Source: a virus
Taxonomy: Duplodnaviria; Heunggongvirae; Uroviricota; Caudoviricetes
Virus record (IMG/VR): IMGVR_UViG_2529292836_000020
Strand: one strand, 5' to 3'
DNA: 7,092 bases
The position numbers were made by a program, and so were the translations under genes. Positions within the stretch are counted from its first letter, which is position 1. Every line of letters begins with the position of its first letter. Shown here one piece after another: positions 3,968 to 4,904 of the stretch. The notes beneath the pieces were generated by a model. The model saw nothing but the letters and a program-made list of their open reading frames with translations. It had not been told where the DNA came from and made no database searches.

Positions 3968-4171
3968 TTACGGTGCTGTTTTAAGTCCTGCCGGGATTTC
4001 GTTATTATCCATGTGAATAACTTTATCGACCGGATAACAGTTACCGGGAATTTTCTGTTCTGCTGCGGCAGCCATGCATTCTTTCATTGAACCGTAAATG
4101 TCAATAACCATGTCAACAGGCTCGCCAGTATTAAGAAAAACAGTCAGAGTGAGGGCAATAGCAGTATTCAT
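3968..4171 (-). CDS. ydfD: YdfD-like small protein (67 aa; Qin prophage lysis protein family)
   Basis: ATG at 4171..4169 overlaps the dicB stop as ATGA, with AAGGA 8 nt upstream. Hydrophobic N-terminus MNTAIALTLTVFLNTG. Position immediately downstream of dicB matches the Qin operon order. The ORF track's longer start at 4225 would overlap dicB by 58 nt and is rejected. Confidence 0.8.
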   Translation of the reverse strand: MNTAIALTLTVFLNTGEPVDMVIDIYGSMKECMAAAAEQKIPGNCYPVDKVIHMDNNEIPAGLKTAP

Positions 4172-4356
4172 TGCCAGTATCCTTTTTGCATCGGGCGTAA
4201 ACGGGCCAGCATTGAAAGAATGCATATTTTATTTAATAGCTCCCGTTCGTATTTTCTCTTATTAATGGCATCTTCAGTAAATACAGGGTTACTGATTCTG
4301 ACACCAATTTCAAAACAACCTTCAGACGTATTGACGTTTGGTAATAACGTTTCCAT
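4168..4356 (-). CDS. dicB: Cell division inhibitor DicB (62 aa)
   Basis: ATG at 4356 with GAGGA 7 nt upstream. Translation METLLPNVNTSEGCFEIGVRISNPVFTEDAINKRKYERELLNKICILSMLARLRPMQKGYWQ is near-identical in length and sequence to E. coli K-12 DicB as I recall it. The GTG start at 4452 in the ORF track lies inside the processing stem and is rejected. Confidence 0.88.
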   Translation of the reverse strand: METLLPNVNTSEGCFEIGVRISNPVFTEDAINKRKYERELLNKICILSMLARLRPMQKGYWQ

Positions 4357-4373
4357 TATCGCGTCCTCAACAA

Positions 4374-4530
4374 TGAATTTTGTGATGCGGTGCCTGGTGC
4401 CTCCAGGTGACGTTAACCAGTTAACAATTAACGCCGGATACAGAGAACCCACCCATAAGCCAATACGGAAGTCAACTGGTTTTAACTGTTCCGCGTGCGC
4501 TCAGCCGCATTCACCGCATCACAAAATTCA
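4374..4530 (-). promoter_or_regulatory. Perfect 19-bp long-range inverted repeat (4374-4392 and 4512-4530) forming a predicted RNA stem that encloses a 119-nt loop; candidate RNase III processing site
   Basis: Plus 4374-4392 tgaattttgtgatgcggtg is the exact reverse complement of plus 4512-4530 caccgcatcacaaaattca. On the minus-strand transcript the 5' arm begins 4 nt after the DicF U-tract and the 3' arm ends 17 nt before the dicB start codon. Confidence 0.5.
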
Positions 4531-4534
4531 CTTT

Positions 4535-4577
4535 AAAAAGGGCGGCAGAGCAGTCACGGAGTAAAACTGATACCGCC
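4535..4577 (-). terminator. Intrinsic terminator-like hairpin plus U-tract at the DicF 3' end
   Basis: Stem GGCGGUA ... UGCCGCC followed by C and UUUUU (plus 4535-4539 is aaaaa). Confidence 0.55.
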
Positions 4578-4592
4578 AAACGTCACCAGAAA
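4540..4592 (-). ncRNA. dicF: DicF small RNA (53 nt; ftsZ-targeting antisense sRNA of the dicB operon)
   Basis: Minus-strand sequence UUUCUGGUGACGUUUGGCGGUAUCAGUUUUACUCCGUGACUGCUCUGCCGCCC followed by UUUUU matches the DicF sequence as I recall it, in the expected position between ydfC and dicB. Confidence 0.88.
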
Positions 4593-4904
4593 ATTGATAA
4601 CAGAGGGCGTTGCAGCGGGGTTGTCACTTAAGCGTATGGTCAACCTGACAACCCGGTGTCCTCAACGGGGGAAGGAATAACCCCGCCATACTTACCGCCG
4701 CACCATTTCGCGGATTGCCACAACCGGAAGCGCACGGTCGACGAAAATTTAACGACAGGCTATCTATGAACCAGCTACCTCGCCGTGCGCTTTCGCGTTA
4801 TGGTCTGACTTTGCAGGGAAATATCCTTTCAGTAAACTGTCTGTGCCGGATGCTCACCCGTGGAGAACTCCTTACTTACCAACCTTAGCTTCGTTGGTTA
4901 GCTA

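Follow-up and report, generated by a model that had tools for sequence, protein, structure and literature searches.

In the 16S and 23S pre-rRNA stalks, flanking sequences form a long-range helix, and RNase III cuts both of its strands and frees the enclosed RNA. RNase III cuts between cistrons also affect the stability or translation of the flanking messages. Intercistronic or phage sites of this type, listed in part in a 2009 review (PMC2777011), include T7 early mRNA, the lambda N-leader and sib, rpsO-pnp, and metY-nusA, and the same review places the dicF-dicB intergenic region among the RNase III substrates. For the dicB operon of E. coli K-12, RNase III processing goes back to Faubladier, Cam, and Bouché (1990, J Mol Biol 212:461), whose work is taken here from two papers that cite it, Balasubramanian et al. 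2016 (PMC5069750) and Ponath et al. 2022 (PMC9438474); according to these, RNase III cuts the full-length transcript and thereby produces the 3' end of a 72-nt DicF. Two papers that map RNase III targets globally add no more than a citation of the 1990 work. Ragunathan et al. 2023 (PMC10448788) reported that RNase III makes the 5' end of a 190-nt DicF, and a downstream site is unmentioned in that paper. STnc100 and PasD, in turn, are prophage sRNAs; PasD was found on Hfq by RIL-seq and has the antiterminator Q gene and lpxR as common neighbours, and a copy of STnc100 lies 75 nt downstream of stx2 (PMC12370729).

The DNA analysed here, referred to as the window, is a stretch of 7,092 nucleotides from a Caudoviricetes virus (IMG/VR record IMGVR_UViG_2529292836_000020). 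It holds the locus of the E. coli K-12 dicB (dicBF) operon, with the element in the same position, and is approx. 94% identical to K-12 across the region. Its Pfam context is Qin-like (DUF1482/YdfD, DUF1391/YdfA, an HTH repressor, a YdaT-family protein, and an integrase). Between DicF and dicB, two arms, which in K-12 read UGAAUUUUGUGAUGUGGUG and CACUGCAUCACAAAAUUCA, can pair over a long range. The K-12 arms form 17 Watson-Crick and two G·U pairs, whereas the window allele forms 19 Watson-Crick pairs.

The DicF-dicB interval and its inverted repeat

All features of the interval are encoded on the minus strand, and in the mRNA they follow each other in the order DicF, UUUUUAAAG, 5' arm, 119 nt, 3' arm, UUGUU, GAGGA, and the AUG of dicB:

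4725..4795, minus strand: separate hairpin upstream of DicF (inverted repeat I21, arms 4783-4795 and 4725-4737; present in MFE and centroid folds)
4540..4592, minus strand: DicF sRNA, 53-nt form (5' end at 4592, terminator stem end at 4540; the K-12 53-nt annotation aligns to 4592-4540)
4531..4539, minus strand: DicF terminator U-tract and spacer UUUUUAAAG (from the sequence and the folds)
4512..4530, minus strand: P1 5' strand, the distal arm, UGAAUUUUGUGAUGCGGUG (repeat search, consensus fold, covariation)
4493..4508, minus strand: P2a, a small hairpin, GCGGC / GC(A)CGC (RNAalifold consensus)
4482..4488, minus strand: junction CAGUUAA, candidate pseudoknot partner of the P3 loop (7-bp complementarity to UUAACUG, 4418-4424)
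4436..4492, minus strand: P2 domain (closed by GGA, 4490-4492, paired with UCC, 4436-4438; apical region hypervariable)
4409..4435, minus strand: P3 hairpin GGCGUUAAUU / GGUUAACGUC with loop GUUAACU (consensus fold; holds the TTAAC repeats)
4393..4407, minus strand: P4 hairpin CCUGG-AGGCA-CCAGG (consensus fold; identical with the CCTGG/CCAGG mini-palindrome)
4374..4392, minus strand: P1 3' strand, the proximal arm, CACCGCAUCACAAAAUUCA (repeat search, consensus fold, covariation)
4354..4368, minus strand: dicB ribosome-binding site (Shine-Dalgarno GAGGA 4368-4364; AUG 4356-4354)
4168..4356, minus strand: dicB coding sequence, 62 aa (PF05358 DicB, 127.9 bits, full length)

DicF itself was identified with the Rfam model RF00039 at 76.7 bits, against a threshold of 48, over 4591-4540 of the minus strand (model positions 1-52 of 52). 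The dicB Shine-Dalgarno sequence starts 5 nt past the end of the 3' arm at 4374; these coordinates agree with the initial annotation, which had placed the arms just 3' of the DicF U-tract and just 5' of the dicB Shine-Dalgarno sequence. The P2 variable domain is 9 nt longer in the window than in K-12.

The repeat search found 4374-4392 (TGAATTTTGTGATGCGGTG) and 4512-4530 (CACCGCATCACAAAATTCA) to be 100% complementary over 19 nt with 119 nt between them, and this arm pair is both the longest inverted repeat of the window and its sole perfect long one. The 19/19 complementarity had already been noticed in the initial annotation and judged to be far beyond chance in 7 kb, with which the statistics concur. 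None of 200 dinucleotide-preserving shuffles of the window contained a perfect 19-nt inverted repeat, the maximum reached in the shuffles being 17 nt at any spacing and 15 nt within 300 nt, and the analytic expectation for a perfect 19-mer inverted repeat is 9e-5 at any spacing and 8e-6 within 300 nt. A chance origin of the repeat is ruled out by the shuffles together with this expectation.

Perfect pairing is nonetheless one allele of several. Among the matches listed, 81 copies are of the dicB type; 14 of these pair 19/19, 40 contain one G·U pair, and 17, K-12 being one of them, contain two, so that 71 of the 81 are fully paired when G·U is allowed, while 9 of the remaining copies carry one mismatch and 1 is decayed. 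Nearly all arm polymorphisms in E. coli are C/U changes that create G·U pairs on the mRNA strand and would create A·C mismatches on the opposite strand. The element region was matched in 4649 of 5426 complete E. coli genomes.

Helix P1 and RNase III processing

When 4340-4600 and 4365-4539 of the minus strand were folded as RNA, the arms paired in both the MFE and the centroid structures (z = -5.6 and -6.3), and the long-range duplex foreseen in the initial annotation was thus recovered. The AG of the spacer UUUUUAAAG can add a G·U and an A-U pair to the 19 Watson-Crick pairs, by which P1 reaches 21 contiguous bp, a length that corresponds to the helix of about two turns (roughly at least 20 bp) used as a criterion for RNase III.

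Comparative support comes from a pattern scan of IMG/VR that matched at least 120 stretches, and 69 distinct element versions among the matches listed were combined in alignment A2. The RNAalifold consensus of these 69 copies contains P1, P2a, a 3-bp P2 that closes the hypervariable domain, P3, and P4. In P1, 94.7% of cells are paired, and 8 of the 19 pairs show changes in both partners; for the whole named structure, again among the matches listed, 96.9% of cells pair and 15 pairs change on both sides. Shuffling gave 7.6 ± 1.9 covarying pairs, against the 15 observed among the matches listed, and none of 500 shuffles reached 15; in slid controls, 32-41% of cells were paired. In a scan of one genome per species, the element was matched in E. 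coli, E. albertii, E. ruysiae, and Shigella and also in Citrobacter, Klebsiella, Raoultella, Enterobacter, and Pseudescherichia. In these further genera, Citrobacter, Klebsiella, and Raoultella among them, different sequence stands in the outer half of P1, yet approx. 19 bp are kept; for example, the arms of a Citrobacter sp. (CAGGCUUUAAGGUGCGGUG / CACUGCACCUUAAAGUCUG) and those of Raoultella (CAGGCUUUGCAAUGCGGUG / CGCCGCAUUGCAAAGUCUG) both pair 19/19. Cognate arms have a mean duplex energy of -27.3 kcal/mol vs. -17.5 kcal/mol for non-cognate arms, and the corresponding means for the outer halves are -11.5 vs. -6.0 kcal/mol. These comparative data show selection on the element at the level of RNA, and the retention of a length of approx. 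19 bp while the sequence changes is a good argument for the double-stranded helix as such being the feature under selection. An RNase III substrate would be expected to show just this, selection for approximately two turns of helix whatever the sequence.

The position of the reported DicF end leads to the same helix. In K-12 (locus L009), the 53-nt DicF occupies 1770-1822 and the 5' arm 1832-1850, and the 72-nt RNA as given in the citing papers ends at 1841. Counted from the DicF 5' end, nt 72 coincides in both K-12 and the window with the 10th position of the 19-nt arm, which in the window is position 4521; this position is arithmetic on the K-12 size quoted by those papers, and gel sizes may err by 1-2 nt. 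As the end lies mid-arm, a shift of a few nt would leave it within the 5' arm. Counting back 190 nt from the terminator leads instead to approx. 4724-4729, in the 3' strand of the separate hairpin at 4725-4795, which is thus a candidate RNase III site for the 5' end of the 190-nt DicF. The arms of this upstream hairpin (4783-4795 and 4725-4737) are complementary at 12 of 13 positions, and the pairing is longer in the fold. With the 72-nt end in the 5' arm and the 190-nt end in the upstream hairpin, two RNase III-type helices flank DicF, and the 19-bp repeat is the downstream one. The initial annotation, which had regarded the repeat as the RNase III site of the published processing, therefore holds for the 21-bp size, for the place, and for the 72-nt end at 4521 as cited in the later literature, but not for the recently confirmed event, since the 5' end of the 190-nt DicF belongs to the other site at approx. 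4725-4795. Overall, the RNase III reading of the helix is supported and, for the K-12 orthologue, has been known since 1990 according to the papers that cite the original work.

On this basis, we propose that in transcripts that read through the DicF terminator, 4530-4512 would pair with 4392-4374 to form a P1 of 19-21 bp, which would close a conserved, folded core of 119 nt made up of P2a, P3, P4, the short P2 helix, and a probable pseudoknot. RNase III would cut P1 near its middle, giving the 72-nt DicF that ends at approx. 4521, and the cut on the second strand would fall at 4382/4381 if the rule of a 2-nt 3' overhang is applied to the 4521 end. Such cleavage would part the ydfABC-DicF portion of the transcript from a dicB-ydfD mRNA starting at approx. 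4381 with a 25-nt leader; a literature search returned no published 5' end of the dicB mRNA. The core would be released as an RNA of approx. 139 nt (4520-4382), with the 9 innermost pairs of P1, GAUGCGGUG / CACCGCAUC, as its closing helix. These inner 9 bp are the sole part of P1 that is kept in the copies of P7 and D6 (8-9 bp there), and the 8-bp P1 of canonical STnc100 occupies the same place. Copies of the P7/D6 type, with a P1 of only 8-9 bp, indicate that the long helix is unneeded for whatever the core does, and the outer half of P1 might be an excision signal that was added where the RNA sits inside an operon, as in the pre-rRNA stalks. The helix, its covariation, its position, and its modular conservation come from the present analysis and the 72-nt end from the literature at second hand; what we infer is the cut on the second strand, the freeing of the core, and whatever function it may have. 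Considered jointly, these lines make it probable that read-through RNA folds P1 around a conserved STnc100-like core and that RNase III cuts P1 in mid-helix.

Compared with the systems introduced above, the pre-rRNA stalks are similar in that a long-range helix surrounds a structured RNA within a polycistronic transcript, and the core here would be excised in a like manner; they differ in that 1.5-2.9 kb are enclosed there and 139 nt of a putative RNA here. With T7, lambda, rpsO-pnp, and metY-nusA, the DicF-dicB site shares the cleavage of a phage or operon transcript by RNase III between cistrons. However, the T7, lambda, and cellular sites are local irregular hairpins that are often cut on one strand, whereas the DicF-dicB helix closes a conserved domain with a candidate pseudoknot and travels before other genes as well.

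The enclosed core and its gene contexts

The initial annotation had described the 119 nt between the arms as a loop that contains three TTAAC repeats and a CCTGG/CCAGG mini-palindrome. These elements are present; however, they are strands of the conserved hairpins P3 and P4, and the 119 nt form a multi-helix core rather than a loop. In alignment A2, among the matches listed, P2a (columns 36-40 with 46-51) has 99% of its cells paired and is nearly invariant, with hardly any covariation evidence, and two of the three pairs of P2 (columns 52-54 with 113-115) change on both sides, while its apical part varies between copies. P3 consists of 10 pairs, four of which changed on both sides, with 99% of cells paired, and in P4, which has five pairs, a U-A pair is replaced by G-C in seven sequences (both among the matches listed). 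The G·U pairs of the internal hairpins are sensible only on the mRNA strand. The junction CAGUUAA (4482-4488) and UUAACUG (4418-4424) of the P3 loop are complementary over 7 bp and invariant within the subfamily. At the equivalent places, an E. coli/Shigella variant has AAGGUUG/CAACCUU and canonical STnc100 has AUCAGC/GCUGAU, which can likewise pair (loci compared include L132, L166, and L212). These pairings are suggestive of a conserved pseudoknot that joins the P3 loop to the junction, the comparison being semi-quantitative because the automated extraction of P3 loops misfolded 4 of 16 representatives.

A permissive Rfam scan aligned 4379-4528 with STnc100 (RF02076) at 38.5 bits (E = 3.8e-7), with P1, P3, and P4 in register. 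Membership of the Rfam family was rejected, as this score lies below the gathering score of 47 bits, which was reached neither in the window nor in 8 related loci. The STnc100 architecture of P1, small hairpin, P3, and P4 is nonetheless shared with the element according to both the cmscan alignment and the independent RNAalifold consensus; the registers of the small hairpin differ, two of its pairs being non-canonical in the Rfam alignment. The two RNAs have in common the helix order, that is, P1 with GGUG/CACC, AAU, the small hairpin, the variable domain, P3, and P4 CACCNGGAGGCACNNGGCACC, the last being the segment closest to the STnc100 consensus. In both, the junction can pair with the P3 loop, and both are prophage-borne. 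In contrast, canonical STnc100 has an 8-bp P1 (GCAUGGUG / CACCAUGC), is a free-standing unit with its own rho-independent terminator approx. 25 nt downstream, and belongs to the late region, whereas the DicF-dicB element has a P1 of 19-21 bp, lacks such a terminator, the dicB ribosome-binding site following its 3' arm, and lies between cistrons of the early-left operon. Thus, the element is a distant relative of STnc100/PasD and not a member of the family.

It is possible, and we put it forward tentatively, that the DicF-dicB spacer, like its copies before kilR, tciA of P1/P7, and the isrK-C4 antirepressor unit, encodes a distinct, unannotated pseudoknotted RNA of the STnc100/PasD superfamily. 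Where P1 is long, RNase III would excise it (approx. 139 nt) from early-operon transcripts, and it would have its own role, be it that of an sRNA acting in trans or as a sponge or that of an RNA that binds protein. The literature search found no RIL-seq-style names for the leaders of dicB or kilR. A small peptide starting at the AUG of GAAUGCGG, considered on account of seemingly synonymous CUN, CGC/CGU, and GGA/GGC variation, was rejected; the variation falls in the P2a loop, in P2a as a G-C pair turned into G·U, and in P2 as a compensatory pair, the length and sequence of the ORF vary between copies, and its AUG is buried beside P1 with no usable Shine-Dalgarno spacing.

The core and its arms also occur as a module outside the dicB operon. 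A distant BLAST against phage genomes gave partial hits confined to the arm-bounded segment, in which both dicB and the 5' part of DicF were missing. The module is found approx. 20 nt upstream of kil/kilR in Rac-SA53, Shigella phage 75/02 Stx, and others (loci L003, which is Rac-SA53, L002, L006, and L008), upstream of terB/tciA within the tRNA-ban operon of the P1-like phages P7 (L001) and D6 (L004), and in a Klebsiella phage; in a further class (L013), it is followed by isrK, the C4 antisense RNA, and a Rha-type antirepressor ORF. Among the matches listed, 72 distinct versions (not 69, the de-duplication window being slightly different) precede dicB (39), kil (15), the isrK-C4 unit (9), tciA (3), a 40-aa Klebsiella protein (3), and other genes (3). 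Several of the downstream genes are known or annotated cell-division inhibitors, namely DicB, Kil, and, by annotation, TciA.

Several further observations concern these contexts. Two kil-type loci (L002 and L003) have a terminator hairpin and U-tract resembling the 3' half of DicF (…CUGAUGUCCGCCCUUUUU) approx. 60 nt upstream of the module, and by sequence the same DicF-like hairpin occurs in other kil-type loci. Rfam gave no DicF hit at gathering score in L002 and L003, the two kil-type loci that the scan covered, and the upstream hairpins may be diverged DicF-like sRNAs. In the Klebsiella-type copies (L005, L138, L012, and L091), a conserved 40-aa protein, MKDFARVPTGNQATRLNWFEVRLRQLCYLLAQKGNPEAEA, takes the position of dicB, and its gene is followed by an ORF that by eye resembles DUF1482/YdfD. 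Some prophage copies (L040, L049, and L062) retain just the module's 3' half, UAUCCGGCG and what follows it (with P3, P4, and the 3' arm), joined to unrelated upstream DNA; P1 is impossible there for want of the 5' arm, and these loci look like products of recombination or deletion. MG1655 records contain two matching places, the second of which may be a copy of the module at Rac kilR.

Alternative readings and significance

The initial annotation also held that the duplex could control dicB translation, and a reading in which this is its main role, either hiding or crowding the ribosome-binding site until RNase III cuts or keeping that site open, has in its favour that the 3' arm ends 5 nt from the Shine-Dalgarno sequence. 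In MFE folds, weak pairs of the U-tract can extend the helix onto UUGAG, so that the start of GAGGA is touched. The remnant UUCAUUGUUG that the putative cut would leave could pair with CGAUAAUGGA, which would bury the dicB AUG and place the Shine-Dalgarno sequence in a loop; this hairpin (4354-4381) and P1 are mutually exclusive, the hairpin competing with outer P1, and a polymorphism of codon 2 (GAA in the window, AAA in K-12) preserves the pairing as U·G or U-A. However, the covarying helix includes neither the Shine-Dalgarno sequence nor the AUG. Opening the region from the one to the other is computed to cost 3.8 kcal/mol in the RNA from DicF to dicB, 6.8 kcal/mol in RNA from the U-tract, and 7.8-8.3 kcal/mol after the putative cut, which, small as the differences are, is the opposite of cleavage freeing the site, and the idea that the stem hides the Shine-Dalgarno sequence until cleavage is unsupported by these values. 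Moreover, the distance from the module to the start site ranges from roughly 14 to over 30 nt before kilR, tciA, the isrK-C4 unit, and others, so that the closeness to the Shine-Dalgarno sequence is specific to dicB and not a conserved feature of the design. Translational control as the main role is therefore unlikely, while a modest effect on dicB translation, in either direction, is conceivable.

The structure might instead act on transcription, as a second terminator or attenuator, or as an RNA that modifies RNA polymerase or blocks Rho loading before toxic genes. In most lambdoid copies, the element directly follows DicF or a DicF-like terminator, its invariant loops and pseudoknot suggest a specific binding partner, and one of the downstream genes, kilR, is silenced by Rho. 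The 3' arm itself was rejected as a terminator, given that no U-tract follows it and that the terminator scan was empty there. The element also lies downstream, not upstream, of the terminator that accompanies it, Rfam gave no sequence or structure match to a known antitermination RNA, and a role in transcription would leave the helix length of approx. 19 bp and the reported RNase III end unexplained; we regard it as very improbable. Perfect 19-bp inverted repeats around a 119-bp insert, and a bounded segment found in several unrelated gene contexts, would also be expected of a DNA element between dicF and dicB, with the arms as terminal inverted repeats of a miniature transposable element or as a protein-binding palindrome. 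Yet the arm polymorphisms are strand-specific G·U pairs, which are mismatches in DNA, the internal hairpins covary with G·U pairs that fit the mRNA strand only, and no direct repeat flanks the segment (AAAG before, TTGT after). In addition, the boundaries of the segment shared with P7 and D6 fall within the arms, of which only the inner 8-9 bp are conserved, and the 19-bp arms therefore do not bound a mobile unit; other genera replace the outer arm sequence while keeping the pairing. On the strength of the strand-specific G·U pairs, the unduplicated flanks, and the boundaries within the arms in P7 and D6, a DNA palindrome or miniature transposon was rejected, and such an origin seems to us hardly credible. 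The reading in which RNase III cuts a long P1 around a conserved RNA core is the one we retain.

The processing of this duplex is part of a literature that, judging from the papers citing it, dates from 1990, and to this the window adds only a cleaner allele. The duplex explains how one operon transcript yields the DicF regulator and a separate dicB message, and as DicF and DicB are both toxic and block cell division, this processing matters for the balance between prophage and host. What is new is the comparative view, in which the length of the helix is kept across Escherichia, Citrobacter, Klebsiella, and Raoultella, and in which the enclosed 119 nt appear as a conserved, modular, and apparently pseudoknotted relative of STnc100/PasD that has no database annotation at this locus. 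The modest novel part is thus an unannotated STnc100-like RNA that RNase III may excise. Should the core be set free and have a function, an overlooked RNA would be present in well-studied E. coli strains with the module, K-12 included. Prophages of the dicB form, by sequence including the Qin prophage of K-12, would then carry an unannotated functional RNA beside the gene of a cell-division inhibitor, and the STnc100 family would gain a route of biogenesis and a new genomic context.
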